This document shows positions 2,575 to 50,913 of a DNA stretch of 64,000 nucleotides, one piece after another. The stretch lies in the sequence record MT764206.1. The stretch is one strand, 5' to 3'. The DNA is from Escherichia phage JEP6. The position numbers were made by a program, and so were the translations under genes. How positions within the stretch are numbered: position 1 is the stretch's first letter; the number at the start of each line of letters is the position of its first letter. Below the pieces are notes generated by a model. The model ran no database searches. It saw only the letters and a list, made by a program, of their open reading frames with translations, and had not been told where the DNA came from.

Positions 2575-3775
2575 ATTTTGTAATAATGTCAAACTGTTCT
2601 TTAAAGCAGAAGCTTGAATCTTGGTGCTGATACAAAAATTCATATGCTTTTTCTCGCTCACGGTCATAAAGAGCTCGGTCAGATGACAGTTCTTTAATAC
2701 GCTCGAATGTTGATTCCATGTCATTTTCATCAAACCAAATGATACCACTATCATGCGAGGTCAAAGGAGTATTATCAACACGGAATTTTAAATTATCACC
2801 CGTTGATTTCCAAAATACCGGAATTGTACCGCAAGCACCTAATTCAAGATGAGTATATTCGAGTGAGCGTTGTAAGTATTTCTGGTTAAGTTTACTCAAC
2901 TGATATCCAAAGCCAGATTTACTCATTCGTTCAAGCATTTCACTATTAATATAACAATCTAGGATTTGTGCCGGTTGATTCGGCGTGAGATTCATTTTAT
3001 CAATCTCACGATTACCATAATATTCATACGGAATACCTTTTTCCTTAATTGCAATAAAAGCAGGGGAACGTTCAAGACCTTCCATTACAGTGGATTTACC
3101 AGCAGGTTTTAAGAATTTTTCGTGAAAATCAAACATCTGATAAAAACCTTTCCATGTAGTCGTACGACCAATCCAACGGTTGATGTTCATGTTAATTTCA
3201 GAAACATCTTTCCAATAAGTTGACCGAACCTTCACAATATCCATAGGAGGCTGAAAATTATATACTGTTGGTGCTTCTTCAATATCATCAAACAGAGAAA
3301 CAGTTTCTGGATACCATTCTTTCATCAGAACTTTATTAAAATCGCCATTATCAGAATGACTAAAAATAACATCAGCTCGACGAACAGTTTCTTCTAATCC
3401 CAAATTTCGACGCAAAGAAAGCACAGAATGATCATGCTGATAAACTACAACACGAATAGAAGGTTTAATATTATCTAAAAGTTTTTTATAGTTATTAATC
3501 GTAGCTTCTTGAACGGAAGTAGCAGGAACAGAATTAATAATTAGAATATCACAATCATTTACCAGCTTAAGTGCTTTATCGTATTCTTTAGCTAAAATAA
3601 CTGGAATTGAAAATGATTTGTGGTCATGAGAACTTGTACGAGTAAATGATTTATCTTTAGCATAAACCAAAGTTACTTCATGACCATTTTTAATAAACCA
3701 ATCACGCTGCTCAAGAGAAAATTTAGTTACACCGCAACCTTCAAGACCCCGAGCCAGAAAAATGCATACTTTCAT
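2573..3775 (-). CDS. a-gt: DNA alpha-glucosyltransferase
   Basis: 400 aa; N-terminus MKVCIFLARGLEGCGVTKFS and overall sequence match recalled T4 AGT; position between 47 and 55. Confidence 0.85.
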   Translation of the reverse strand: MKVCIFLARGLEGCGVTKFSLEQRDWFIKNGHEVTLVYAKDKSFTRTSSHDHKSFSIPVILAKEYDKALKLVNDCDILIINSVPATSVQEATINNYKKLLDNIKPSIRVVVYQHDHSVLSLRRNLGLEETVRRADVIFSHSDNGDFNKVLMKEWYPETVSLFDDIEEAPTVYNFQPPMDIVKVRSTYWKDVSEINMNINRWIGRTTTWKGFYQMFDFHEKFLKPAGKSTVMEGLERSPAFIAIKEKGIPYEYYGNREIDKMNLTPNQPAQILDCYINSEMLERMSKSGFGYQLSKLNQKYLQRSLEYTHLELGACGTIPVFWKSTGDNLKFRVDNTPLTSHDSGIIWFDENDMESTFERIKELSSDRALYDREREKAYEFLYQHQDSSFCFKEQFDIITK

Positions 3776-5348: not shown

Positions 5349-5618
5349 TTATCTAAGTAAACAGTATGCTTGGAATACTTTCTCCATCATCTTTTTAAAT
5401 TCATGAATATCTATATAATGACTAGTTAAATCAGCATGATATAAAAAGTCTAAAAACTTTTCATGTGTGCTAACATATTCGCTTTCATTTAATTCAGAAA
5501 CATGGCTTTCCCAATATCCAACACCAGTCTTATTTGGGAAAAATGAAATTTTCATGTATTGGTCAACATAGAAAATGCCATAATTTTCAATAGTAATAGA
5601 AATATTAATAAATTTCAT
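5349..5618 (-). CDS. hypothetical protein
   Basis: ORF track 89 aa. Confidence 0.5.
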   Translation of the reverse strand: MKFINISITIENYGIFYVDQYMKISFFPNKTGVGYWESHVSELNESEYVSTHEKFLDFLYHADLTSHYIDIHEFKKMMEKVFQAYCLLR

Positions 5619-5830
5619 ACATTCATCAACTTAGCCGCTTCAAGAGCTGCATCTAGTGAATCAAATTGGTCAACGTATTCAATCAATTCGCCGTAATTAG
5701 CGTATAACCACCATTGGCTAAATTCATACTCAAGGATGAATCCGTTTCCTTCAATTTGAGTTAAACCAATGCCATTTGTATTTACTTCATACCCAGCAAG
5801 ACGTAAATCGTTAATAAGAGCTTCGTTCAT
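5615..5830 (-). CDS. hypothetical protein
   Basis: ORF track 71 aa; overlaps neighbour by 4 nt. Confidence 0.5.
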   Translation of the reverse strand: MNEALINDLRLAGYEVNTNGIGLTQIEGNGFILEYEFSQWWLYANYGELIEYVDQFDSLDAALEAAKLMNV

Positions 5831-5832
5831 AA

Positions 5833-6159
5833 TTATACCTTAGTAATTTTCAGGTCTGCAAATTTTTTCTTGCGTTGATTTTTCATGCGACGAATAGCTT
5901 TATCGGAAATTTCATGCTTTTGATAAGCTTTAGATTCTACACCAAAAGCTTTAACATCAAATTCTGACAAGATATATTGAACCAACAATTCACGGACAGT
6001 ATTGCGTCCAATCTTCTGATCATTCTGTTTCATCATCTGATGAAGCTCTTTTTCCCATTTATCCAAAATTTGAGGAGTTACAATATCGCCTTTTTCTAGC
6101 AAAGAAACTACTTTATCATATGCGTAAGAATTAATGACGTTTTTAATTTGAATAGTCAT
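5833..6159 (-). CDS. hypothetical protein
   Basis: ORF track 108 aa. Confidence 0.5.
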   Translation of the reverse strand: MTIQIKNVINSYAYDKVVSLLEKGDIVTPQILDKWEKELHQMMKQNDQKIGRNTVRELLVQYILSEFDVKAFGVESKAYQKHEISDKAIRRMKNQRKKKFADLKITKV

Positions 6160-6197
6160 ACATTATCCTCAATTACGTTAAAATTTTATTATCCAAA

Positions 6198-6213
6198 AAG
6201 GGCCGAAGCCCTT
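6198..6213 (-). terminator. hairpin AAGGGC-CGAA-GCCCTT followed by T-run on minus strand
   Basis: stem-loop at 3' end of ORF 6212-6412; A5 on plus strand at 6195-6199. Confidence 0.45.
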
Positions 6214-6412
6214 AGCTAAACTTTTTGGCACCCTTCCAGCCTTCGTACATCATTGCGACTGACAATGACAAAGCTCCTTCACATGCTGCATACTTATTAT
6301 TCCAGAACCAATTTAGAAAAACTTCATCCTCAATACCATTGTGTTTCATGTTCTGGAAAAATTTGGCGCGTTCTTCACGAAGCTTTTGCGATAATTTAGA
6401 TTCAGGATTCAT
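6212..6412 (-). CDS. hypothetical protein
   Basis: ORF track 66 aa. Confidence 0.45.
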   Translation of the reverse strand: MNPESKLSQKLREERAKFFQNMKHNGIEDEVFLNWFWNNKYAACEGALSLSVAMMYEGWKGAKKFS

Positions 6413-6628
6413 TTAAATTTCCCAATTACCATTTTCATCAATAAATTTAATCCAGTCATTTACTGACCACTTGGTCGTATCGCCTTTTGGAGTAACATTT
6501 AAAGTATATAACCCCTGCTTAAAAAGCATTCGTTTGATATTCATATTTTCCTCAGCTGTAACGATAGCACTCGTTTGATTTACGTTTAGCAACTCGTTGA
6601 GAAATATTATAATCAAAATCATCGTCAA
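6413..6628 (-). CDS. hypothetical small protein; likely true start at internal ATG 6544 (GAGGAAAA RBS)
   Basis: ORF track 71 aa; upstream part overlaps neighbour. Confidence 0.4.
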   Translation of the reverse strand: MTMILIIIFLNELLNVNQTSAIVTAEENMNIKRMLFKQGLYTLNVTPKGDTTKWSVNDWIKFIDENGNWEI

Positions 6629-6890
6629 TGTAAACTGATTTTTTCAACTTTCTTACTTCACCACGTAATTGACGATTCAATTCATTCTTAACCTCTGAAT
6701 CAACACCTCGCATACGTCGCCATTTATCTGAGCGAAAAATGTTTTCAACCATATCTTTATGACTTACCCCATCAGGAGCTTTACGCTTTCCGAAATAGTC
6801 ATAATCACGCACTTTTAAGTCTTTACGACGATACGTTTTACCCATAGAGTTTAATTTCCTTAGCAACTGAACTAAATACAGCACGGTCAC
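6552..6890 (-). CDS. hypothetical basic protein; start may be internal (about 6845)
   Basis: ORF track 112 aa. Confidence 0.45.
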   Translation of the reverse strand: MTVLYLVQLLRKLNSMGKTYRRKDLKVRDYDYFGKRKAPDGVSHKDMVENIFRSDKWRRMRGVDSEVKNELNRQLRGEVRKLKKSVYIDDDFDYNISQRVAKRKSNECYRYS

Positions 6891-7020
6891 AAATCATGTG
6901 TTTATGTAACTTAAGTATAAGATAATAAACATCATAACCATTTACGTAAGTAACGCGAACAGCATTACCATTAATAAGATAATACTGTCCCTTTTTAATT
7001 TCTTTATCAATCATAACCAT
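6838..7020 (-). CDS. hypothetical protein
   Basis: ORF track 60 aa; early promoter immediately upstream. Confidence 0.45.
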   Translation of the reverse strand: MVMIDKEIKKGQYYLINGNAVRVTYVNGYDVYYLILKLHKHMICDRAVFSSVAKEIKLYG

Positions 7021-7050
7021 ATCAATTCCTCAAAGGCAATTCATGTGTTA

Positions 7051-7080
7051 ATAATACCACGGTTTGAACTTGTTGTAAAC
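7051..7080 (-). promoter_or_regulatory. T4-type early promoter (GTTTACA-N17-TATTAT)
   Basis: minus-strand -35 GTTTACA and -10 TATTAT with 17-nt spacer and A/T-rich upstream tract; about 30 nt upstream of ORF start 7020. Confidence 0.6.
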
Positions 7081-7177
7081 AACTTTGTGAAAATATTTTA
7101 GGGAATGATAAGAAAGGAACGATAGCTTAGAATGGTAATATACAGAATGTAAGAAAGAAAGGCCCAGAAGGCCTATC

Positions 7178-7501
7178 TTAGTCTTCTATGATATCTCTAT
7201 CATATCCAAGTGAAATGAGGGTTTCTTTGAAGTGTTTAATGTTCTTTTGTCTGGAATCATTAATGAAAATGACTGGATAACGAATGTTAAGAGATGTGAA
7301 TCCGGCGCGTTTAGCAAGAGATACAATCAGTGGACGATCATACTCAATCTTACCATTATTTGTAAGAACTTTATAGAAAGTAAAAGGAGCACTGAGCTCC
7401 TTTAGAAGTTTTGTAACTGATTGACATCCAGGACAACGACCTACTTCATCTGGAATTCCATAGACTTCAATCTTATTCTTTAAGTTCGAGTTTTGTTCCA
7501 C
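7178..7501 (-). CDS. nrdH: glutaredoxin/NrdH-like redoxin (CPGC motif)
   Basis: CxxC active-site motif EVGRCPGCQS; no in-frame ATG, probable GTG start at 7501 with AAGGA RBS; located next to nrdG/nrdD. Confidence 0.55.
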   Translation of the reverse strand: MEQNSNLKNKIEVYGIPDEVGRCPGCQSVTKLLKELSAPFTFYKVLTNNGKIEYDRPLIVSLAKRAGFTSLNIRYPVIFINDSRQKNIKHFKETLISLGYDRDIIED

Positions 7502-7784
7502 GAGAAATAATTCCTTGGTAAGCCCAATAAGGAGGATTAACAGAATCCTCGCCAGAGTTTTCTTCAGGAAAATAAACCTGGATAACGAAGCCGGATTCAT
7601 CAAAGGTAAAATAAACCGTAGGCAGTTCACCTAACAAATCGGCACGAGCGTTGATTTCTTCGAGGTCTTGTTCACGTCCAGCCCAGAAGCTTGGGTTCAG
7701 ACTACATTCATAGAAATAATAGTCATTACCGAACATATCAAAACCATTCCAACTCTCTACTACATACCGCTCAAAACTAATCAT
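7473..7784 (-). CDS. hypothetical protein
   Basis: ORF track 103 aa. Confidence 0.5.
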   Translation of the reverse strand: MISFERYVVESWNGFDMFGNDYYFYECSLNPSFWAGREQDLEEINARADLLGELPTVYFTFDESGFVIQVYFPEENSGEDSVNPPYWAYQGIISRGTKLELKE

Positions 7785-7786
7785 AA

Positions 7787-8002
7787 TTAAGCCTTTTTAT
7801 CAAGAACAGCATTCAGCTTGTTAGTAATTTTATCCAGACGCTCATTGAACTCACTAGAAGATAAACCTTTTTCTGGAGAAATTAAGCTAATCACGAAAAA
7901 TATAGCAATAAAAGGAATAAGGAAAATAGCTCCAACTGCCATAAACAGAAAGAATGTTACAGTTGTAAGAAAATCAGCTAAACCTTTACGAAATTTATAC
8001 AT
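7787..8002 (-). CDS. hypothetical membrane protein
   Basis: ORF track 71 aa; hydrophobic segment TVTFFLFMAVGAIFLIPFIAIFFVISLI. Confidence 0.5.
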   Translation of the reverse strand: MYKFRKGLADFLTTVTFFLFMAVGAIFLIPFIAIFFVISLISPEKGLSSSEFNERLDKITNKLNAVLDKKA

Positions 8003-8011
8003 ATTTTATCC

Positions 8012-8125
8012 TTAATTAATTAACCAAGCATTGATAAGTACTAAACTATACTGCGAATAAAATTCTGGACCAAAATGAAAAATCATATCATTTATAGTAT
8101 CCATAATGTAATTCAATTTAATCAT
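8012..8125 (-). CDS. possible small peptide (37 aa) downstream of nrdG
   Basis: internal ATG of track ORF 8012-8236; fills the 115-nt gap after nrdG; weak RBS. Confidence 0.25.
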   Translation of the reverse strand: MIKLNYIMDTINDMIFHFGPEFYSQYSLVLINAWLIN

Positions 8126-8588
8126 GTTTCCACACCCCATCGGTATTTGACCAAAGTCGCTGATTATCTGATCCTCGCCACAACTTTTTAGTCGGAAGAT
8201 TTTTCTCATACTTCCCATCAATAATAACATCAACATATTTAAGCATTTCTAGTTGTTTAATATCTTCAAACTTATATCCTGTCCACAACCAAATGCTTTT
8301 ATTGGGATAAAGATTTTTAATAGTTTGAACCACAGAGTGAATCACGTCTCTGTTATCAGGATAAAGAGGGTCACCTCCAGTTATAGTCAATCCTTCTATA
8401 TAATCATTATTCAAACATTCAATTAATTGCTCTAGTGTTTCACCAGTGAATGGAATACCATTTCTAGCATTCCATGTTGATTTATTATAACACCCTTCGC
8501 ATTTATGCAAACATCCAGTAACAAAAAGAACGGTCCTGCACCCAGGACCATTAACAAAATCGCAAGGATAAAATCTATCATAATTCAT
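8118..8588 (-). CDS. nrdG: anaerobic ribonucleotide reductase activating protein (radical SAM)
   Basis: 156 aa; radical-SAM cysteine cluster CLHKCEGC; overlaps nrdD stop. Confidence 0.9.
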   Translation of the reverse strand: MNYDRFYPCDFVNGPGCRTVLFVTGCLHKCEGCYNKSTWNARNGIPFTGETLEQLIECLNNDYIEGLTITGGDPLYPDNRDVIHSVVQTIKNLYPNKSIWLWTGYKFEDIKQLEMLKYVDVIIDGKYEKNLPTKKLWRGSDNQRLWSNTDGVWKHD

Positions 8589-9864
8589 TGGTGTTTAACC
8601 CTATGCATGATTTCTTTATTTTTACCGAGATTAAATCCGCGTTCGTTCGGATTTCCCAAATAACCACATGTTCTTCTTATTGTGTTCATCTTTTTAGGAT
8701 CAGTTTCTCCACAAATAGAACAAACAAATCCGTTTTCAGTAGGAGTCATTTCATGGGTGCTTCCGCATGTAAAACATTTATCTACTGGCATATTAACACC
8801 AAAATAATCTAAATGTTGTGCAGCATAATCCCATACGGCCTCAAGACCTTTTAAGTTATTTTTCATATCAGGAAGTTCAACATAAGAAATGTGACCACCT
8901 GTCGCAATGAAATGATATGGCGCTTCACGAGAAATCTTTTCAAACGGAGTAATATTTTCTTCTACTGAAACATGGAAACTATTAGTGTACCAACCTTTAT
9001 CGGTAACATCTTTTACGCTTCCATATTTTTCTGTATCAAGTTTACAGAAGCGATAACAAAGGTTTTCAGCAGGAGTCGAATATAAACTAAAAGCAAATCC
9101 GGTTCTTTCAGTCCACTGTTTAAGATGGGCATTCATTTTAGTTAAAATTTCCTGTCCAATATCACGACCGACAAGAATATTCAATTCATGAATACCAATG
9201 TATCCTAAAGACACTGAACTTCTACCGTTTTTAAATAACTCAATTATGTCGTCATCAGGTTTAAGACGAACCCCAAATGCACCTTCTTGGTAAAGAATAG
9301 GAGCAACAGTCGCTTTAACTCCTTTTAAGGAACTAATTCTACACATCAAAGCTTCAAAACACAAATCCATTCGTTCATTGAATAATTCAACAAATTTCTG
9401 TTCATTGAACTGTGTTCCAATATAAGAATCTAACGCGATGCGAGGAAGATTCAATGTTACAACACCAAGATTATTACGTCCATCAAGAATTTCATTGCCA
9501 GTCGAATCTTTCCATACGCTCAAGAAACTACGGCAACCCATTGGAGAAACAGGAACAGATGAACCAGTGATAGCTTTATTATTCTTAGCTGAAATAATAT
9601 CAGGATACATCCTTTTGCTTGCGCACTCTAGAGCAAGCTGCTTAATATCATAGTTCGGATCGTCTTTGTAAAGATTAACACCTTCTTCAACAAACATAAC
9701 AAGCTTAGGGAAAATAGGAGTTATCCCATCACGACCAAGACCTTTAATACGATTTTTCAGAATTGCTTTCTGAATCATTCGTTCAGTCCAGTCAGTTCCC
9801 GTACCAAATGTAATTGTTACAAAAGGCGTTTGTCCGTTTGAACTAAAGAGAGTATTTACTTCAT
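8585..9864 (-). CDS. nrdD: anaerobic ribonucleoside-triphosphate reductase NrdD, exon 2
   Basis: C-terminal glycyl-radical motif RRTCGYLG and zinc-ribbon CFTCGSTHEMTPTENGFVCSICG; frame continues from exon 1 across a 1045-nt intron giving ...DAFQAYE-Y-EVNTLF... and a 605-aa product. Confidence 0.85.
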
Positions 9865-13425: not shown

Positions 13426-13685
13426 TTAAAGTATTCCCGCAATTGGTCAAATCCACCAATATGACTTCCATCAGGAGCAAATACTTGTGGCATCGTCAGT
13501 CCAATTTGAGTATCACGACCCAGTTTAGTTAGAAGCTCAGCGATTTTCTCATCATCAAAAACACCTTTTTCCGGCATAATGTTGATAAATTCAAACGGCT
13601 GTTTCTTCACAGTCAAGAGACGTTTTGCATTATCGCAATACACACATTTGTGGATGTTGCTATCATAACCATATACTTTAAACAT
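13422..13685 (-). CDS. nrdC: thioredoxin/glutaredoxin NrdC
   Basis: 87 aa; CVYC redox motif; sequence MFKVYGYDSNIHKCVYCDNAKRLL... matches recalled T4 NrdC. Confidence 0.9.
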   Translation of the reverse strand: MFKVYGYDSNIHKCVYCDNAKRLLTVKKQPFEFINIMPEKGVFDDEKIAELLTKLGRDTQIGLTMPQVFAPDGSHIGGFDQLREYFK

Positions 13686-13686
13686 A

Positions 13687-13977
13687 TTATTCCTTAATTC
13701 CTAGTACTTGTTTAAAAGTCTCGTCGTAATCAAGACTTTGACCTGTTTGTTCTTTATGTTTGTATATAATATCACTTACTTCTGATAGCATATTTTTATA
13801 TGAACGAGTTAAAGCAGATTTAAGCACGCTGTATCTATCAGGAAATTTACCATGTTCATTATAATAAGCTATTGCTAATTCACGGACTGCCTTTTCAGCA
13901 GTCTCCATATATTCTTTACGCTTGGTCATTTTCTTCTCGGTTAAATCGGTGTTTGCAATGACGACATTTATATTCAA
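13687..13977 (-). CDS. hypothetical protein; start may be internal
   Basis: ORF track 96 aa. Confidence 0.45.
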
Positions 13978-14233
13978 GCTCTGGTTTACGCCAGTTAATC
14001 AATTGGACCTGTTCAGTACCACATTTTGGGCAATTCGGAACATTCTTAGAAGCCCTTTCGCGGCGTTCAACCATAACCATAATGGCATCCCAAGCAGGAG
14101 GTTTAAAGTCTAGATCGTCACAGCCATGAATCTTTCCACGCATTTCCAAATCGTCTTCTTCACCAGCCATAATAATTTTAATTAGACTAGAATTACTTGA
14201 AGCTGCAATGTCTTCTAATAGACGCTTTTTCAT
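13916..14233 (-). CDS. hypothetical zinc-ribbon protein
   Basis: 105 aa; CPKCGTEQ...CRHCKH two CxxC pairs. Confidence 0.5.
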
Positions 14234-37903: not shown

Positions 37904-38569
37904 TTAAAATTTCATTTTTCGACCTTTAAACCATCCTTCTGGAATTGGGTCAGTTTTCTTAATACGTTTAGAAACTTTTTCATCTAATGAATGAATCCAC
38001 ATCATACCAAATTGGGAATTCTTTTCGCCCTGTTGGTGTTTATTTCTGGCGTGAGATTCTTTCATTTTATTAATAGTTTCAGGAGTATGATGCTTATTTA
38101 AAAATCTGCTATTATTTAAAAATTTTTCCCTGTATTCAGGAGTTGACCACAAGCGTTTAAATACATTTGAACCATGTTTACGATATTTTTCTTGAAGTAA
38201 AATATCATTTTTAAAACGTGACTTAAACGATTTAGCTCCTTTTAAACTAGCGTCTTTCTTCTGGTTTAGCATCCCAGGAATATTTATATGATCCCATCCA
38301 CCTTCACCACCTAATTTCAAATTATAAACATCAGGGCGCTTTAAAAACTCTTCAGTCACAATATTCTTTTCTGACTCAAACATAGAGGTTTTATCGTCAA
38401 AGAACTCTAATATTTCTTTAGAAAAATTTTCTATACCATACTTATCTTGGGCTCTTTTTAATAATTTACCAGAACCCATATATCCATCATCTAAATTTTC
38501 GGTAGAATGCACACCAATATAAATTTTATTATTAATTTTATTTGTTATTTTATAAGTGTAATGGAACAT
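37904..38569 (-). CDS. segB: GIY-YIG homing endonuclease (SegB-like) within the tRNA cluster
   Basis: 221 aa; N-terminal YTYKITNKINNKIYIGV...GYMGSG GIY-YIG motif; located between tRNA-Ile and tRNA-Arg. Confidence 0.7.
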   Translation of the reverse strand: MFHYTYKITNKINNKIYIGVHSTENLDDGYMGSGKLLKRAQDKYGIENFSKEILEFFDDKTSMFESEKNIVTEEFLKRPDVYNLKLGGEGGWDHINIPGMLNQKKDASLKGAKSFKSRFKNDILLQEKYRKHGSNVFKRLWSTPEYREKFLNNSRFLNKHHTPETINKMKESHARNKHQQGEKNSQFGMMWIHSLDEKVSKRIKKTDPIPEGWFKGRKMKF

Positions 38570-40126: not shown

Positions 40127-40536
40127 CCTTCATCAACAATAGTATGCGTATTGGCATTTACAATTTGCCACCAATCAAATCGATTAGAACCATACATCGG
40201 TTTGTTTTCATTTTCTTTAATAATGTCACGGAGTTCATCTTCAGTGGCGGCTTTCGCGATTAAATCAGCATATCCACCACGAGGATAATAATTATCACCT
40301 GCAAAAAGTAAAAAGTTTGGTTTAATGTTATTGAACTCTTCAAGAGTAATAACTTTTCCTGTTGGTTGAACAATCTCTACATATTTATATCCCAATTTTT
40401 GAGCAGCATCTACTGCTTCAAGCAAAGTATCATGAGCCCATCCTATTTGACAATTCGGCTTTTTAGATGGATTAGCCTGATAATCCGCGTACACTTTATA
40501 CATTCTATTCACCTTTAGAAATTTTATCCATAACAA
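40123..40536 (-). CDS. hypothetical protein; start probably internal (MYKVYADYQ, about 40503)
   Basis: ORF track 137 aa. Confidence 0.45.
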   Translation of the reverse strand: MLWIKFLKVNRMYKVYADYQANPSKKPNCQIGWAHDTLLEAVDAAQKLGYKYVEIVQPTGKVITLEEFNNIKPNFLLFAGDNYYPRGGYADLIAKAATEDELRDIIKENENKPMYGSNRFDWWQIVNANTHTIVDEG

Positions 40537-40690
40537 TAGCGATTAAACCAATTAAAAATGCTACTACAAGTGAAAACACGTTTTCTGCTGTAGTCAATAA
40601 TCCGCATATAAATCCAACAAACATTGAAAAACTAAAAGCAGAAGCAGAAATTGCAATAGCAACATTTCGAATTAATTCACAACGTTTCAT
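40505..40690 (-). CDS. hypothetical small membrane protein
   Basis: 61 aa, largely hydrophobic; early promoter upstream. Confidence 0.45.
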   Translation of the reverse strand: MKRCELIRNVAIAISASAFSFSMFVGFICGLLTTAENVFSLVVAFLIGLIAIVMDKISKGE

Positions 40691-40718
40691 TTTATTCTCC
40701 TCAGTAGTTGATAGGGTA

Positions 40719-40748
40719 ATAGTATCACAACTAAAACCCTATGTAAAC
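40719..40748 (-). promoter_or_regulatory. T4-type early promoter (GTTTACA-N17-TACTAT)
   Basis: conserved element upstream of ORF start 40690. Confidence 0.6.
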
Positions 40749-40766
40749 AACTTTGTGAAATATTTA

Positions 40767-41054
40767 TTACAAAAGATTTTTAGCAATAATTTTGAGCTGA
40801 GCTACTGAAATATGCTTGGCTTTAAACAACGCAGTTTCTTCAGCAGGAGAGATAACGATTGTAGCACCATCCTTTTTAGCAGACCACCCATCGCCTAGGT
40901 AAACAGTACCTTTGATTTCTTCGCCATCAACCAGACTAATCATTGGTTTACCTTCTCGTCCTTTATTTGCTTTAATAACTTCAGAAGTAAGAGTAGCTTC
41001 GGTAATGGTAGAAACCGGGGTAGTTGTAGAAGTAAACTCTTTGAAAGTTTTCAT
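40767..41054 (-). CDS. internal-protein-I-like small protein (ipI locus)
   Basis: 95 aa; N-terminal MKTFKEFTS CTS-like leader; position between 57B and the tRNA region. Confidence 0.55.
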   Translation of the reverse strand: MKTFKEFTSTTTPVSTITEATLTSEVIKANKGREGKPMISLVDGEEIKGTVYLGDGWSAKKDGATIVISPAEETALFKAKHISVAQLKIIAKNLL

Positions 41055-44511: not shown

Positions 44512-44519
44512 TATAAATA
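44512..44519 (+). promoter_or_regulatory. late promoter (TATAAATA) for gene 53
   Basis: exact TATAAATA 28 nt upstream of gene 53 ATG. Confidence 0.6.
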
Positions 44520-44547: not shown

Positions 44548-45138
44548 ATGCTCTTTACATTTTTTGATCCGATTGAATATGCGGCCAAAACGGTGAATAA
44601 AAACGCGCCGACTATTCCTATGACAGATATTTTTAGAAACTATAAAGACTATTTCAAACGCGCTCTTGCGGGATACCGCTTACGTACTTATTATATCAAA
44701 GGTTCACCACGCCCGGAAGAATTAGCAAATGCTATATATGGAAATCCACAGTTGTATTGGGTTTTATTGATGTGTAATGATAATTATGATCCATATTATG
44801 GATGGATTACTTCGCAGGAAGCTGCTTATCAAGCATCTATACAAAAATACAAAAATGTAGGTGGAGACCAAATAGTATATCATGTGAATGAGAATGGTGA
44901 AAAATTTTATAATTTAATATCATACGATGATAATCCATATGTTTGGTATGACAAAGGCGATAAAGCTAGAAAATATCCTCAATATGAAGGAGCACTTGCT
45001 GCGGTAGATACGTATGAAGCTGCTGTTCTTGAAAATGAAAAACTTCGTCAAATAAAAATAATAGCAAAATCAGACATCAATTCATTTATGAACGACCTTA
45101 TACGTATAATGGAGAAATCTTATGGAAATGATAAGTAA
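44548..45138 (+). CDS. 53: baseplate wedge protein gp53
   Basis: 196 aa; position immediately upstream of gene 5. Confidence 0.85.
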   Translation: MLFTFFDPIEYAAKTVNKNAPTIPMTDIFRNYKDYFKRALAGYRLRTYYIKGSPRPEELANAIYGNPQLYWVLLMCNDNYDPYYGWITSQEAAYQASIQKYKNVGGDQIVYHVNENGEKFYNLISYDDNPYVWYDKGDKARKYPQYEGALAAVDTYEAAVLENEKLRQIKIIAKSDINSFMNDLIRIMEKSYGNDK

Positions 45139-46894
45139 TAACCTTAATTGGTTTGTTGGTGTTGTTGAAGATAGAATGGACCCATTAAAATTAGGTCGTG
45201 TTCGTGTTCGTGTGGTTGGTCTGCATCCACCTCAAAGAGCACAAGGCGACGTAATGGGTATTCCAACTGATAAATTACCATGGATGTCAGTTATTCAACC
45301 TATAACTTCTGCAGCAATGTCTGGAATTGGAGGCTCCGTTACTGGTCCGGTAGAAGGAACTAGAGTTTATGGTCATTTTTTAGACAAATGGAAAACTAAC
45401 GGAATTGTCCTTGGCACATATGGTGGAATAGTTCGCGAAAAACCTAATAGACTTGAAGGATTTTCTGACCCAACTGGGCAGTATCCTAGACGTCTAGGAA
45501 ATGATACTAACGTATTAAACCAAGGCGGAGAAGTAGGATATGATTCGTCTTCTAACGTTATCCAAGACAGTAATTTAGATACTGCAATAAATCCCGATGA
45601 TAGACCGCTATCAGAGATTCCAACTGATGATAATCCAAATATGTCAATGGCTGAAATGCTTCGCCGTGATGAAGGATTAAGACTAAAAGTTTATTGGGAT
45701 ACAGAAGGATATCCGACAATTGGTATTGGTCATCTTATCATGAAGCAGCCAGTTCGTGATATGGCCCAAATTAATAAAGTTTTATCAAAACAAGTTGGTC
45801 GTGAAATTACTGGAAATCCAGGTTCTATTACAATGGAAGAAGCGGTAACTTTATTTGAGCGTGATTTGGCTGATATGCAACGTGACATTAAATCACATTC
45901 TAAAGTAGGACCAGTCTGGCAAGCTGTCAACCGTTCTCGTCAAATGGCGTTAGAAAATATGGCATTTCAGATGGGTGTTGGTGGTGTAGCTAAATTTAAC
46001 ACAATGTTAACTGCTATGTTAGCCGGAGATTGGGAAAAAGCATATAAAGCCGGACGTGATTCATTGTGGTATCAACAAACAAAAGGCCGTGCATCCCGTG
46101 TTACCATGATTATTCTTACAGGGAATTTGGAATCATACGGTATTGAAGTGAAAACCCCAGCTAGGTCTCTATCAGCAATGGCTGCTACTGCAGCTAAATC
46201 TTCTGACCCTGCTGACCCTCCTATTCCAAATGACTCGAGAATTTTATTCAAAGAACCAGTTTCTTCATATAAAGGTGAATATCCTTATGTGCATACAATG
46301 GAAACTGAAAGCGGACATATTCAGGAATTTGATGATACCCCTGGGCAAGAACGATATAGATTAGTTCATCCAACTGGAACTTATGAAGAAGTATCACCGT
46401 CAGGAAGAAGAACAAGAAAAACTGTTGATAATTTGTATGATATAACAAATGCTGATGGTAATTTTTTGGTAGCCGGTGATAAAAAGACTAACGTCGGTGG
46501 ATCAGAAATTTATTACAACATGGATAATCGTTTACATCAAATCGATGGAAGCAATACGATATTTGTTCGAGGAGATGAAACGAAAACTGTTGAAGGTAAT
46601 GGAACTATCCTAGTTAAAGGTAATGTTAAAGTAGTTATTCAAGGAACAGCAGATATAACCGTTGAACAGGAAGCATACATAACTGTTGAAAAAGACACGA
46701 CTGTTAATGTTAACCAAAACGCAGACATAAGTGTTAAAAATAAAGCAACTGTTAATGCTGAAAATATGGATGTCAACGTTGAGCAAGATTTAAATTTTTC
46801 AGCGACAAATATTAATTTAAGTGCATCTAATACTGTTCATATGGATGGCGGGGTTCTTTCTAAAGTATCAGGTGGAAACGTACAGGTTGGTTAA
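45122..46894 (+). CDS. 5: baseplate central hub/spike protein gp5 with lysozyme domain
   Basis: 590 aa; N-terminus MEMISNNLNWFVGVVED; internal T4-lysozyme-like domain (MAEMLRRDEGLRLKVYWDTEGYPTIGIGHL); C-terminal octad beta-helix repeats. Confidence 0.9.
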   Translation: MEMISNNLNWFVGVVEDRMDPLKLGRVRVRVVGLHPPQRAQGDVMGIPTDKLPWMSVIQPITSAAMSGIGGSVTGPVEGTRVYGHFLDKWKTNGIVLGTYGGIVREKPNRLEGFSDPTGQYPRRLGNDTNVLNQGGEVGYDSSSNVIQDSNLDTAINPDDRPLSEIPTDDNPNMSMAEMLRRDEGLRLKVYWDTEGYPTIGIGHLIMKQPVRDMAQINKVLSKQVGREITGNPGSITMEEAVTLFERDLADMQRDIKSHSKVGPVWQAVNRSRQMALENMAFQMGVGGVAKFNTMLTAMLAGDWEKAYKAGRDSLWYQQTKGRASRVTMIILTGNLESYGIEVKTPARSLSAMAATAAKSSDPADPPIPNDSRILFKEPVSSYKGEYPYVHTMETESGHIQEFDDTPGQERYRLVHPTGTYEEVSPSGRRTRKTVDNLYDITNADGNFLVAGDKKTNVGGSEIYYNMDNRLHQIDGSNTIFVRGDETKTVEGNGTILVKGNVKVVIQGTADITVEQEAYITVEKDTTVNVNQNADISVKNKATVNAENMDVNVEQDLNFSATNINLSASNTVHMDGGVLSKVSGGNVQVG

Positions 46895-46895
46895 T

Positions 46896-48932
46896 ATGAA
46901 TTATAACGAAATTGTTGATGAATTAGTTGATACCATACAATCAGCTTGTTCAATTATTCCCGAAGGTTATTATAGACGAGTTAAATGGGAATTATACAAT
47001 CCCAATAAAGAAATGATTCAACCCGATAATGGGGTTGAATGGGACACTGAAATTATTAAATTAGATACCCATCTTTACACCGAAAATCCATTTGGTCATT
47101 CTTCTGATACATTTACTGAATCATCTAATGGAGAAACCCAAACTGGTGTTTTTTGTCATAAAATCGGCGTGTATTTTCCAACTCAAACTGCGTTAGAAGA
47201 TTACGTTGAACAAATTGGTGCAACTTTACTTCCAGGTAATACTTGGTATGGTGCTGATTTATCGAAACGTGAATTTTTTAAAACTGAAATTGAATATGAT
47301 ATGTATCGCATTGAAAATCGCGGAGGTACATGGCATCATACGGGTCCTAGAATAGATGCTAGGACAATGATCGGTGTTAACAATGACTATACAATGTATG
47401 TTAACTTTAACGGTTTAGGAGATTATCGAAGAGCATATTTAAAATATTATGAAGATAAACCATGCACATATGTCGGTTTAACACTAAATTTAAATATAGA
47501 TACATCAATTCCCGGTATTCCTTATTCACCTCCATCAATTATTGGAGAGCTTCCACTTAATGCAATTTCATGCGTTAATTTTACTGCCCAATTTCCATAC
47601 AATGGCTTAACATCTGCAATTATTGAGGCTTGGAACACCTCAAGAGATTCATTTAAACTATATTGGGATATGTTGCCTGGTATGCCGGCAATTAGCGGAA
47701 GTGATTTTGAAAAATATTTTAATTCGGCATATACACATTTATCTGTAGCAATGGAAGAGCTTGGAAATTCGGCAATTGCCATGTGTCAATATGTTCAGCA
47801 ACAAGCCTTTATGGTTTTTAAAAATTCTGTTTCACAAGTTCTAAATATTGTCGGTGGCGGATGGGATTTATTAAAAAGTTTTTTACCTAAAATAACAATA
47901 ATGGGCATATCTATTGATATTGAAGATTTATGTACATCAACAGATGGTGTTCAAAAATTGAAGGAAACCTTTGAAAATTTTAATCTGGAAGATACTATTA
48001 GTTCAATTTATTCTGCAATGGGTTCTGCATATGACTATTCTATAGAACGCGTTAAAATGTATTCGCGGGATTTAGTTGATGCAATAACAGATTTATATGA
48101 TTGGGCCTGGTCAAAATTAATGATGGCCGGTGTCGCTTTATCAAAATTATGTGTTGATTTAGCACAAATCTGGAGCATGCCGCCAATTATTCCAAATCCA
48201 GTGTGGTCTGTTATCACTTTAGTGAAGGAAATGATGAAACAAATTCCTCCATTAGATATGATTATGTCAGGTAATTTTCCTGGATTTACTGCTTCTGATG
48301 TATATCAGATGGTTATGTCTATCGTATCTGAAAAAATTAAACAAGTTTATACTGAAATAGAATCATTAAAAACCCAAGCATTGGATGTATGGAATGAAAT
48401 TAAACTAAAAACACAGGAATATAAAAAGCAAACGATTGAATTTAAACAATATTTATCAGGAATGGCTGAAAAGGTTGAAGATGAAATAACTATAGCAAAA
48501 AAGAAAGCGTTACAAGAAGCTGAATCCGCTTTAAATGTTTTAAAGGATAAATATAACAGTATTAAAGACTTAATAAAAAATAAACAGATTTCTGTGTCTG
48601 ATGTATTAGATTTAGCTTTGACTGAATTTCGAAAAATTCCATTAATTTCACAAATGGAATCATTATTATCTTTAGCTGGAGCATCTATCGATGATATAAT
48701 GAAAGTATATGAAAATAGCGTTACTAAAGCAAAATCATTATATCACGAATTCACCGATGGCGCTCGGTCAATGAAAGATCTATGCAAATCATTATACAAT
48801 CAAATTTCGACTTTATGTTTGAGTAAGGTTGTGCAATGGATTAATAAAATGCTTGGAATATTTGGATTAAGTATTACATTTCCAACAGTATCAATATGCA
48901 TTCCATGCTTAAAAACTCCTATGAGGAATTAA
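46896..48932 (+). CDS. large uncharacterised protein (678 aa) between gene 5 and gene 6
   Basis: continuous ORF from ATG 2 nt after gp5 stop to 1 nt before gp6 ATG; N-terminal globular part, C-terminal coiled-coil region and hydrophobic Cys-containing tail; no motif recognised. Confidence 0.65.
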   Translation: MNYNEIVDELVDTIQSACSIIPEGYYRRVKWELYNPNKEMIQPDNGVEWDTEIIKLDTHLYTENPFGHSSDTFTESSNGETQTGVFCHKIGVYFPTQTALEDYVEQIGATLLPGNTWYGADLSKREFFKTEIEYDMYRIENRGGTWHHTGPRIDARTMIGVNNDYTMYVNFNGLGDYRRAYLKYYEDKPCTYVGLTLNLNIDTSIPGIPYSPPSIIGELPLNAISCVNFTAQFPYNGLTSAIIEAWNTSRDSFKLYWDMLPGMPAISGSDFEKYFNSAYTHLSVAMEELGNSAIAMCQYVQQQAFMVFKNSVSQVLNIVGGGWDLLKSFLPKITIMGISIDIEDLCTSTDGVQKLKETFENFNLEDTISSIYSAMGSAYDYSIERVKMYSRDLVDAITDLYDWAWSKLMMAGVALSKLCVDLAQIWSMPPIIPNPVWSVITLVKEMMKQIPPLDMIMSGNFPGFTASDVYQMVMSIVSEKIKQVYTEIESLKTQALDVWNEIKLKTQEYKKQTIEFKQYLSGMAEKVEDEITIAKKKALQEAESALNVLKDKYNSIKDLIKNKQISVSDVLDLALTEFRKIPLISQMESLLSLAGASIDDIMKVYENSVTKAKSLYHEFTDGARSMKDLCKSLYNQISTLCLSKVVQWINKMLGIFGLSITFPTVSICIPCLKTPMRN

Positions 48933-48933
48933 A

Positions 48934-50913
48934 ATGACAACTCCTGTAAATTATCAATTAACAAGAACAGCAAATGCTATTCCCGAGATATTCGTCGGGG
49001 GTACGTTTGCTGAAATAAAACAAAACCTCATTGAATGGCTTAATGGCCAAAATGAATTTTTGGATTATGATTTTGAAGGCTCAAGATTAAACGTTCTGTG
49101 CGACCTTTTGGCTTATAATACATTGTACATTCAGCAGTTTGGTAATGCTGCTGTGTATGAAAGCTTTATGCGTACTGCTAACTTACGAAGTTCAGTTGTT
49201 CAAGCTGCACAAGATAACGGATATTTACCTACTTCAAAATCCGCTGCGCAGACCGAAATTATGTTAACATGCACCGACGCATTGAATAGGAATTACATTA
49301 CTATTCCTCGTGGTACTCGCTTTTTAGCATATGCAAAAGATACTTCTGTTAATCCATATAACTTCGTTTCTACCGAAGACGTTATTGCTATTCGTGATAA
49401 AAATAACCAATATTTTCCGCGTTTAAAATTGGCCCAGGGACGTATAGTAAGAACTGAAATCATTTATGATAAATTAACACCTATTATCATTTATGATAAA
49501 AATATTGATAGAAACCAGGTTAAATTATATGTTGATGGAGCGGAATGGATTAACTGGACGAGAAAGTCAATGGTTCATGCTGGTTCTACATCAACAATTT
49601 ACTACATGCGTGAAACTATTGATGGAAATACTGAATTTTATTTTGGTGAAGGTGAGATTTCCGTTAATGCGGCAGAAGGAGCATTGACTGCTAATTATAT
49701 TGGAGGTCTTAAACCTACTCAGAACTCTACGATTGTTATTGAGTATATCAGTACTAACGGTGCAGATGCGAATGGTGCAGTCGGATTTTCATACGCAGAT
49801 ACATTAACAAATATAACTGTCATCAATATTAATGAAAACCCAAACGATGACCCAGATTTTGTTGGGGCAGATGGCGGCGGTGACCCAGAAGATATTGAAC
49901 GTATTCGCGAATTGGGTACTATTAAACGTGAAACCCAACAACGCTGCGTAACTGCAACCGACTATGATACATTCGTTTCAGAAAGATTCGGTTCTATTAT
50001 TCAAGCGGTTCAGACTTTCACTGATTCTACTAAACCTGGTTATGCATTTATTGCTGCTAAACCTAAATCAGGACTATATTTAACTACTGTACAACGTGAA
50101 GATATTAAAAATTATCTAAAAGATTATAATTTAGCTCCTATTACACCATCAATTATTTCTCCTAATTATCTTTTTGTTAAGACTAATTTAAAAGTCACAT
50201 ATGCTTTAAATAAACTACAAGAATCCGAGCAGTGGCTTGAAGGTCAAATAATTGATAAAATTGATCGCTATTATACCGAAGATGTAGAAATTTTTAACTC
50301 ATCTTTCGCTAAATCTAAGATGTTGACATATGTAGATGATGCAGATCATTCTATCATTGGCTCATCCGCGACAATTCAAATGGTACGTGAAGTACAAAAC
50401 TTCTATAAAACGCCTGAAGCGGGTATTAAATACAATAATCAAATAAAAGATCGTTCTATGGAATCTAATACGTTTTCATTTAATTCTGGACGAAAAGATG
50501 TAAATCCTGATACTGGTTTAGAAGAAGATGTATTATATGACGTTCATATAGTATCAACAGACCGAGATTCTAAAGGAATTGGCAAAGTTATTATTGGTCC
50601 ATTTGCTTCTGGCGATGTTACAGAAAATGAAAACATTCAGCCATATACAGGCAATGATTTTAATAAATTAGCAAGTTCCAATGGACGTGACAAATACTAT
50701 GTTATCGGTGAAATAAATTATCCAGCTGACATGATTTATTGGAATATCGCTAAAATTAATTTAACATCCGATAAATTTGAGGTTCAGACTATTGAGCTAT
50801 ATTCTGATCCAATAGACGATGTTATTTTCACACGCGATGGTTCACTGATCGTATTTGAAAATGATTTACGTCCACAATACTTAACTATCGATTTGGAGCC
50901 TATATCACAATGA
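48934..50913 (+). CDS. 6: baseplate wedge protein gp6
   Basis: 659 aa; size and position upstream of gp7. Confidence 0.85.
   Translation: MTTPVNYQLTRTANAIPEIFVGGTFAEIKQNLIEWLNGQNEFLDYDFEGSRLNVLCDLLAYNTLYIQQFGNAAVYESFMRTANLRSSVVQAAQDNGYLPTSKSAAQTEIMLTCTDALNRNYITIPRGTRFLAYAKDTSVNPYNFVSTEDVIAIRDKNNQYFPRLKLAQGRIVRTEIIYDKLTPIIIYDKNIDRNQVKLYVDGAEWINWTRKSMVHAGSTSTIYYMRETIDGNTEFYFGEGEISVNAAEGALTANYIGGLKPTQNSTIVIEYISTNGADANGAVGFSYADTLTNITVININENPNDDPDFVGADGGGDPEDIERIRELGTIKRETQQRCVTATDYDTFVSERFGSIIQAVQTFTDSTKPGYAFIAAKPKSGLYLTTVQREDIKNYLKDYNLAPITPSIISPNYLFVKTNLKVTYALNKLQESEQWLEGQIIDKIDRYYTEDVEIFNSSFAKSKMLTYVDDADHSIIGSSATIQMVREVQNFYKTPEAGIKYNNQIKDRSMESNTFSFNSGRKDVNPDTGLEEDVLYDVHIVSTDRDSKGIGKVIIGPFASGDVTENENIQPYTGNDFNKLASSNGRDKYYVIGEINYPADMIYWNIAKINLTSDKFEVQTIELYSDPIDDVIFTRDGSLIVFENDLRPQYLTIDLEPISQ

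Follow-up and report, generated by a model that had tools for sequence, protein, structure and literature searches.

A putative non-PAAR spike-tip protein encoded between baseplate genes 5 and 6 of a Tequatrovirus and exchanged together with the end of gp5

It is not yet understood how phages with contractile tails proceed from the puncture of the outer membrane to the crossing of the inner membrane by their DNA, and genetics has only begun to define what the spike tip contributes to this process. In T4, the tip is gp5.4, which has been solved as a PAAR-type protein (Mattenberger et al., bioRxiv 2025, PMC12407873) and is required on hosts with a deep-rough lipopolysaccharide (PMC12407873). The genome of Escherichia phage JEP6 (MT764206.1), of which a stretch of 64,000 nucleotides (nt), here called the window, was analysed, raises the question of what can take the place of such a tip. 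Between baseplate genes 5 and 6, it carries a single open reading frame (ORF) of 678 amino acids (aa), which a first-pass annotation of the DNA regarded as unexpected and as either a replacement spike tip on the gp5 needle or a cargo- or effector-like protein. It is a member of a widespread, already described, functionally uncharacterised family, and its product is probably a virion component that docks on a matching gp5 end, where it replaces gp5.4.

The family is known from RB43. Gene 5.4 is missing from RB43, RB16 and Lw1, and the 5.1-5.4 locus of RB43 is filled by orf205w, which encodes a protein of about 690 aa with a mixed alpha/beta part (residues 1-220) and a helical remainder (PMC12407873). 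It has been proposed as the RB43 "putative spike tip protein", and in a map of the RB43 baseplate at 17.7 Å the tip is larger and can accommodate an AlphaFold model of orf205w, itself of low confidence (PMC12407873). Co-expression with a fragment of the gp5 beta-helix was unsuccessful and yielded no stable complex (PMC12407873). As the same proposal has been made for orf205w (PMC12407873), the spike-tip interpretation of the first-pass annotation is an already published hypothesis.

The ORF (ATG start, TAA stop at 48930-48932) spans the gene 5-gene 6 interval, and only 1 nt separates it from the gp5 stop codon (TAA, 46892-46894) on one side and from the gp6 ATG on the other. A T4-type late promoter is found upstream of gene 53 and is the sole match on the + strand before 54582, while no terminator-like site was detected on the + strand between gene 5 and gene 6. 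Since there is a single late promoter and no intervening terminator, the ORF is co-transcribed with genes 53-5-6-7 as a late baseplate operon, in keeping with its initial description as a gene wedged into that operon. Its translation is probably coupled to that of gp5. The C-terminal codons of gp5 (GTn CAG GTn GGn TAA) double as the purine-rich stretch in front of the ATG, in the window (46880-46898) as well as at the equivalent junctions in other carriers. The ...VQVG motif may be under a double constraint, as the end of a protein and as the ribosome-binding site for the downstream gene.

Full-length homologues are encoded in 215 phage records from at least 7 genera of the Straboviridae, always directly after gp5 (tblastn). 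Nine of these records have an identity of at least 99%, and all nine belong to the Tequatrovirus group. The identity amounts to about 72-73% in WG01, LHE83 and SP18, 60% in KM16, 55% in Proteus phages, 46% in Cronobacter and Citrobacter phages, and about 41% in RB43, Lw1, Miller, KP15, Matisse and many Klebsiella and Enterobacter phages. The RB43 homologue is RB43ORF205w itself (41.9% identity over 99% of the query, E = 9e-158). A large protein database holds 65 clusters of the family, nearly all of 670-700 aa, and the dedicated PHROGs family phrog_5296, which has no assigned function, is matched from end to end (positions 1-673 of 685, E = 0). The full-length homologues at 40-73% identity and this end-to-end match indicate that the ORF is a real gene and not a chance ORF. 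There is no significant Pfam domain in the protein, and a sequence search of the PDB retrieved no homologue of solved structure at E <= 1. It had also been considered that the ORF might be an assembly artefact or a fusion of 5.1-5.4; this was rejected, as neither gp5.1 nor gp5.4 resembles the protein and several independent genomes carry the gene intact.

Within Tequatrovirus, the gene is indeed out of the ordinary, but not so elsewhere, given its occurrence in other Straboviridae genera. The region from gene 5 to gene 6 (45122-50913) is 99.6% identical to that of Salmonella phage SG1 (Tequatrovirus sgallinarium), in which the ORF is annotated as a hypothetical protein. This region is matched by 636 phage records and is covered for at least 80% in 8 of them (SG1, G8, F26, sutha, PD112), a count that includes GenBank and RefSeq duplicates of some phages. 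The record BYEP01 covers 68%, ended by its own boundary, and the remaining records, T4 included, match the flanks only. A literature search turned up no paper that treats the family in Tequatroviruses of the SG1 group.

The gene order 53-5-X-6-7, in which X is the family member, is kept in Gaprivervirus, Moonvirus, Bragavirus, Slopekvirus and Pseudotevenvirus. In the Cronobacter phage LPCS28 (Nanhuvirus), the family gene follows gp5, but gp6 is located elsewhere and at least 11 small ORFs on the reverse strand come next (5562-9067). A metagenomic relative with 29% identity has a gp25 gene (2542-2967 of its locus) between the family gene and gp6. The downstream order of the family gene is therefore variable, and the link to gp5 alone is constant. 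Some apparent variants in length were also encountered. An N-terminally truncated copy of 485 aa in phT4A (NC_055712.1) is not real, as there is an assembly gap of 100 N at 3101-3200 of its locus. Two half-length family members in BFVD with nearby accessions, A0A7T3TJJ6 (359 aa) and A0A7T3TJK5 (340 aa), may represent a split or frameshifted gene copy of one phage.

The ORF did not arrive on its own. Residues 1-502 of the window gp5 are 99.2% identical to T4 and 66% to SP18, whereas residues 503-590 are 30% identical to T4, 89.8% to SP18 and 74% to KM16; downstream, gp6 is again 98% identical to T4 and 69% to SP18. The chimeric gp5 has a length of 590 aa, against 575 in T4, with a divergent and slightly longer beta-helix end. 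At the DNA level, the junctions are situated at 46628/46629 (gp5 codon 503) and at 48923/48924, in the ribosome-binding site of gene 6, and 2295 bp stand in place of 1606 bp of T4. Alignment with T4 indicates that the gp5 tip, 5.1, segC and 5.4 have been replaced; the first-pass annotation had given the content of the T4 interval as the small genes 5.1-5.4, but what T4 has there is 5.1, segC and 5.4. The hub genes gp25-26-51-27-28-29-48-54 of SG1 are 97.6-98.5% identical, over the full 7.3 kb, to those of ordinary Tequatroviruses (RB14, RB3, T4 isolates). As the remaining hub is T4-type, the last 88 residues of gp5 are the sole structural element that changed with the new gene. A donor search identified no donor, and the nearest sampled relatives of the cassette have a nucleotide identity of only about 71%; either the donor is unsampled or the exchange is old.

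In T4, the origin oriE and the ORFs repEB and repEA lie within gene 5 (corresponding to 45144-46628 of the window), and oriE precedes the left recombination junction by about 110 bp. The gene for the homing endonuclease SegC was part of the T4 segment that was replaced. The interval between genes 5 and 6 could be a hot spot of recombination.

In carriers of the family, the end of gp5 is distinctive. In all 20 loci (at least 7 genera, and metagenomes), the start of the family gene lies -1 to +10 nt from the stop of a preceding gene of gp5 size, whose product ends in the motif ...(V/I/F)(S/T)G(G/A)(N/T)V(Q/S)VG, whereas the gp5 of T4 ends in ...TIDGSRIDIG. The linkage to the motif also holds in LPCS28, where gp6 is not adjacent, and in the relative with 29% identity. 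In a mirror-tree analysis, every segment of the ORF correlates with the gp5 tip (r 0.77-0.97) via the shared phylogeny, and no segment is singled out. Together, the co-transfer in one cassette and the linkage to the motif are indirect support for a binding of the 678-aa protein to the gp5 end.

Furthermore, the PAAR tip is absent where the family gene is present. With T4 gp5.4 and gp5.1 as tblastn queries, neither the window nor the complete SG1 genome gave a match at E <= 10. A PAAR hidden Markov model (HMM) was built from six diverse gp5.4/PAAR proteins (of T4 and of Acinetobacter, Vibrio, Campylobacter, Aeromonas and Rhizobium phages) and applied to all six-frame ORFs of at least 40 aa from the window, SG1 and eight carrier loci; it recognised T4 gp5.4 only (5e-45), with a next best match at E = 2. 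The 678-aa protein has no Pfam match to PAAR at E <= 1, which agrees with the absence of a PAAR-like motif noted at first sight. Homologues of gp5.4 occur in 1422 phage records, and the family gene and gp5.4/PAAR are mutually exclusive in the genomes examined.

Co-inheritance with the gp5 tip is also what would be expected of a dedicated chaperone. The protein could be a non-virion assembly factor for the variant gp5 end, which would fold or cap this end during assembly of the hub and would then be released. T4 baseplate operons do encode assembly factors, and the failure to obtain a stable complex of the RB43 protein with the gp5 fragment (PMC12407873) would fit such a transient role, as would the literature, in which mass spectrometry evidence for the protein in virions was not found. 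The virion proteomics literature for KP15/KP27, slopekviruses and RB43 contains nothing usable on the protein, and virion mass spectrometry of Morganella MP1 missed gp5 itself and is hence uninformative on the family protein. A Klebsiella paper of 2026 was rejected as virion evidence, as it concerns Jiaodaviruses of the gp5.4 type. We nevertheless consider an assembly factor unlikely: the tip of RB43 virions shows additional density that no PAAR gene can explain (PMC12407873), a protein of 678 aa that is conserved throughout is large for the chaperoning of an 88-residue segment, and no such factor is needed by the T4-type gp5.

The predicted structure bears on what a docked protein might do. 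An AlphaFold2 (AF2) model, computed with a 60-sequence alignment as input, has a mean predicted local distance difference test (pLDDT) score of 87.2 and a predicted template-modelling (pTM) score of 0.80. It consists of an alpha/beta part (residues ~1-280, with residues 1-200 at a pLDDT of ~90), a helical part with five long helices (residues 285-655, with a hairpin of ~100 residues at 466-566) and a C-terminal strand of 10 residues (664-673). A BFVD model of another family member (46% identity), obtained independently, superposes on it with a template-modelling (TM) score of 0.85. BFVD contains no other viral structure like that of the protein, and a search with the N-terminal domain also retrieves family members only; as modelled, this domain has no known fold. 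The compact beta-cone of ~100 residues that characterises PAAR tips is not seen in the protein.

In the family alignment, residues 285-465 and 571-660 are the most conserved and the hairpin region 466-570 the least. Residues C18 and C190 are invariant and C226 and C668 are conserved for ~95%, while no His is conserved anywhere. The N-terminal part had initially been described as a globular region of ~330 aa with Cys and His; its globular nature is borne out by the model, but it measures ~280 aa and it is only the Cys residues that are conserved. The accompanying description of a coiled-coil-rich C-terminal half with a hydrophobic, Cys-containing tail broadly agrees with the model and the alignment. 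Residues 649-671 are strongly hydrophobic throughout the family (mean Kyte-Doolittle value 1.77), and this is the sole conserved stretch of the kind. A strand at residues 224-232 disappears from the model when the C-terminal part is left out; this loss suggests a pairing of the two strands, which would bring C226 close to C668.

A profile search against 1.84 billion representative proteins yielded 20 matches, made up of 8 full-length family members, 5 fragments and 7 weak relatives, and no bacterial or type VI secretion system (T6SS) relatives. The weak relatives (E 2e-8 to 1e-3) align with residues ~290-670 through apolipoprotein-like amphipathic helices. All seven match tape-measure PHROG profiles, P0072 and P0076 weakly; the PF10145 domain (PhageMin_Tail) is found in three of them (P0073, P0075 and P0077), and two match phrog_5296 reciprocally at ~1e-11. 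The 678-aa ORF itself matches tape-measure PHROGs weakly (1e-5), and a Pfam search detected no PF10145 in it. This similarity is a lead that may be compositional.

Taken at face value, it would make the protein an internal, tape-measure-like protein, held in the hub or in the lumen of the tube and ejected after the spike to form or extend a channel to the inner membrane. That its sole remote relatives are of the tape-measure type, with reciprocal matches, speaks for this, as does the conserved hydrophobic segment at its C-terminus. Against it, the similarity is weak and limited to the amphipathic helices, and PF10145 is lacking; SG1 retains a T4-type gp29 tape measure, so the ORF is not the sole determinant of length; the part of gp5 with which the protein covaries is the outer end, directed away from the tube; and the extra density in RB43 is located at the tip (PMC12407873). 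We regard an internal location as quite improbable.

The absence of bacterial and T6SS relatives from this exhaustive search also has a bearing on the other early suggestion, that of a spike-borne cargo, effector or anti-defence protein without a structural function at the tip, comparable to the toxin domains of T6SS PAAR and VgrG proteins. The gene is large and without assigned function, and its product would occupy the same place on a gp5/VgrG-like needle as T6SS effectors do. A Pfam search revealed no enzymatic or toxin domain, in line with the initial impression that no enzymatic motif is present, and there is no adjoining immunity-like gene. Moreover, the length and architecture of the family are uniform from Proteus to Klebsiella hosts, whereas effectors vary. 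The suggestion thus has no support and appears very improbable.

Several elements on which the spike-tip interpretation is built are established: the orthology to orf205w, the embedding in the late operon, the cassette co-transfer with the gp5 tip alone, the universal linkage to the gp5 end and the loss of PAAR. The replacement role foreseen by the first-pass annotation is strengthened by the last three of these. The location at the tip is well supported but not proven; for RB43, the evidence that the protein is part of the virion comes from the 17.7 Å map. The docking mode, the copy number and any membrane activity are features that we infer.

On the basis of these elements, the following course of events can be proposed. 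The 2.3-kb cassette entered the SG1 group of Tequatrovirus by homologous recombination, together with the matching gp5 tip, and displaced the T4 gp5 tip, 5.1, segC and 5.4. The non-PAAR protein of ~77 kDa is made late, from the gene 53 promoter, and would dock on the flat end of a gp5 beta-helix of the ...G(G/A)(N/T)V(Q/S)VG type. Upon contraction of the sheath, it would be the first part of the phage to be driven into the host envelope, and it would enter the periplasm with the spike. There, the helical half and the hydrophobic C-terminus might engage the membrane or periplasmic components and so aid delivery of the DNA, an engagement that would replace the sharpening role of the PAAR cone.

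It could be imagined that the family goes further and constitutes a new class of spike-tip devices. A metastable bundle of amphipathic helices, kept shut by a cluster of the four Cys residues between the N-terminal domain and the C-terminal strand, would be delivered with the spike. Once it touched the envelope, the bundle would open and become inserted in a membrane, where it would serve as a translocon or fusion-like element, carried by the phage, to connect the tube with the inner membrane. This idea is tentative, and we give it a small though real chance. If it were correct, the chimera of the SG1 group would indicate that 88 residues of gp5 suffice to fit such a device onto a T4 baseplate.

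Table 1. Positions in the JEP6 window of the ORF, its predicted parts, the exchanged cassette and the surrounding baseplate genes.
Feature	Position	Strand	Remarks
Late promoter TATAAATA	44512..44519	+	T4-type; upstream of gene 53
Gene 53, baseplate wedge, first in operon	44548..45138	+	
Chimeric gene 5, 590 aa	45122..46894	+	OB domain, lysozyme, beta-helix; residues 1-502 99.2% identical to T4
Foreign gp5 beta-helix tip, codons 503-590	46629..46894	+	30% identical to T4, 90% to SP18-type; ends ...KVSGGNVQVG
Exchanged cassette, 2295 bp	46629..48923	+	T4 homology stops at 46628 and is back at 48924
678-aa ORF, orthologue of RB43 orf205w (phrog_5296), putative non-PAAR spike-tip protein	46896..48932	+	
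N-terminal alpha/beta region, residues 1-284	46896..47747	+	AF2 model; C18 and C190 invariant
Helical region, residues 285-655, five long helices	47748..48860	+	AF2 model; weak tape-measure similarity
Long charged helical hairpin, residues 466-566	48291..48593	+	Least conserved segment in the family
Conserved hydrophobic C-terminal stretch, residues 649-671, includes C668	48840..48908	+	Family mean Kyte-Doolittle 1.77
Right junction: T4-type gene 6 ribosome-binding site and start AGGAATTAAAATG	48924..48936	+	Overlaps the last codons and stop of the ORF
Gene 6, baseplate wedge	48934..50913	+	98% identical to T4

Homing endonuclease genes are also present at other sites in these genomes. At 38264-38566 on the - strand, the window encodes a SegC-like GIY-YIG homing endonuclease that is 54% identical to residues 8-108 of T4 SegC and corresponds to the "homing endonuclease" of SG1 between tRNA genes (13482-14147). 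In SG1 (NC_054936.1, 39544-42396), the gene for the large terminase subunit is annotated in two pieces on either side of an endonuclease gene (40424-41023), an arrangement that resembles the insertion of a homing endonuclease.

The SG1 group amounts to a natural experiment, in which an otherwise T4-type baseplate has lost its PAAR tip and the C-terminal 88 residues of its gp5 in exchange for a putative 77-kDa tip module. Through the chimera, the determinant of compatibility is narrowed to the gp5 end. In addition, the orf205w family is now found in a T4 background, with its genetics, its host mutants (hldD, ppiD) and its baseplate models of high resolution, which makes the function of the family testable, and a confident structural model has been gained where the published one was weak.

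Finally, the protein can be set beside known systems. With the T3SS translocators IpaB/SipB, the alpha-pore-forming toxins YaxB/AhlC and the adaptors HlyD/MacA, it shares neither sequence similarity nor context, and its match to such membrane-active proteins with helical hairpins looks like that of a generic coiled-coil hairpin, because prefoldin and designed helical bundles score equally. To tape-measure proteins, it is linked by the weak reciprocal profile similarity of residues ~290-670 (E 1e-5 to 1e-11), by long amphipathic helices with a hydrophobic segment and by a proposed ejection; unlike these, it has no PF10145, it is tied to the outer tip of gp5, and the phage keeps gp29 as its tape measure. 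With T4 gp5.4 and other PAAR tips (PDB 4KU0), it has in common the gene 5-6 slot, the late operon and a proposed site at the end of the gp5 trimer. PAAR proteins have a metal site with His/Cys ligands near the apex; the 678-aa protein has four highly conserved Cys (18, 190, 226 and 668) and no conserved His. The closest counterpart with a proposed function is RB43 orf205w (AAX78727.1; phrog_5296), to which it is 42-44% identical at 99% coverage, and with which it shares the position directly after gp5, the C-terminal motif of gp5, the absence of gene 5.4 and the combination of an alpha/beta and an all-helical part. Unlike in RB43, the gene occurs here in a Tequatrovirus with otherwise T4-type structural genes, into which it was brought with a chimeric gp5; it is closest to SP18-like sequences (73% at the amino acid and ~71% at the nucleotide level), and its last codons overlap a T4-type ribosome-binding site for gene 6.

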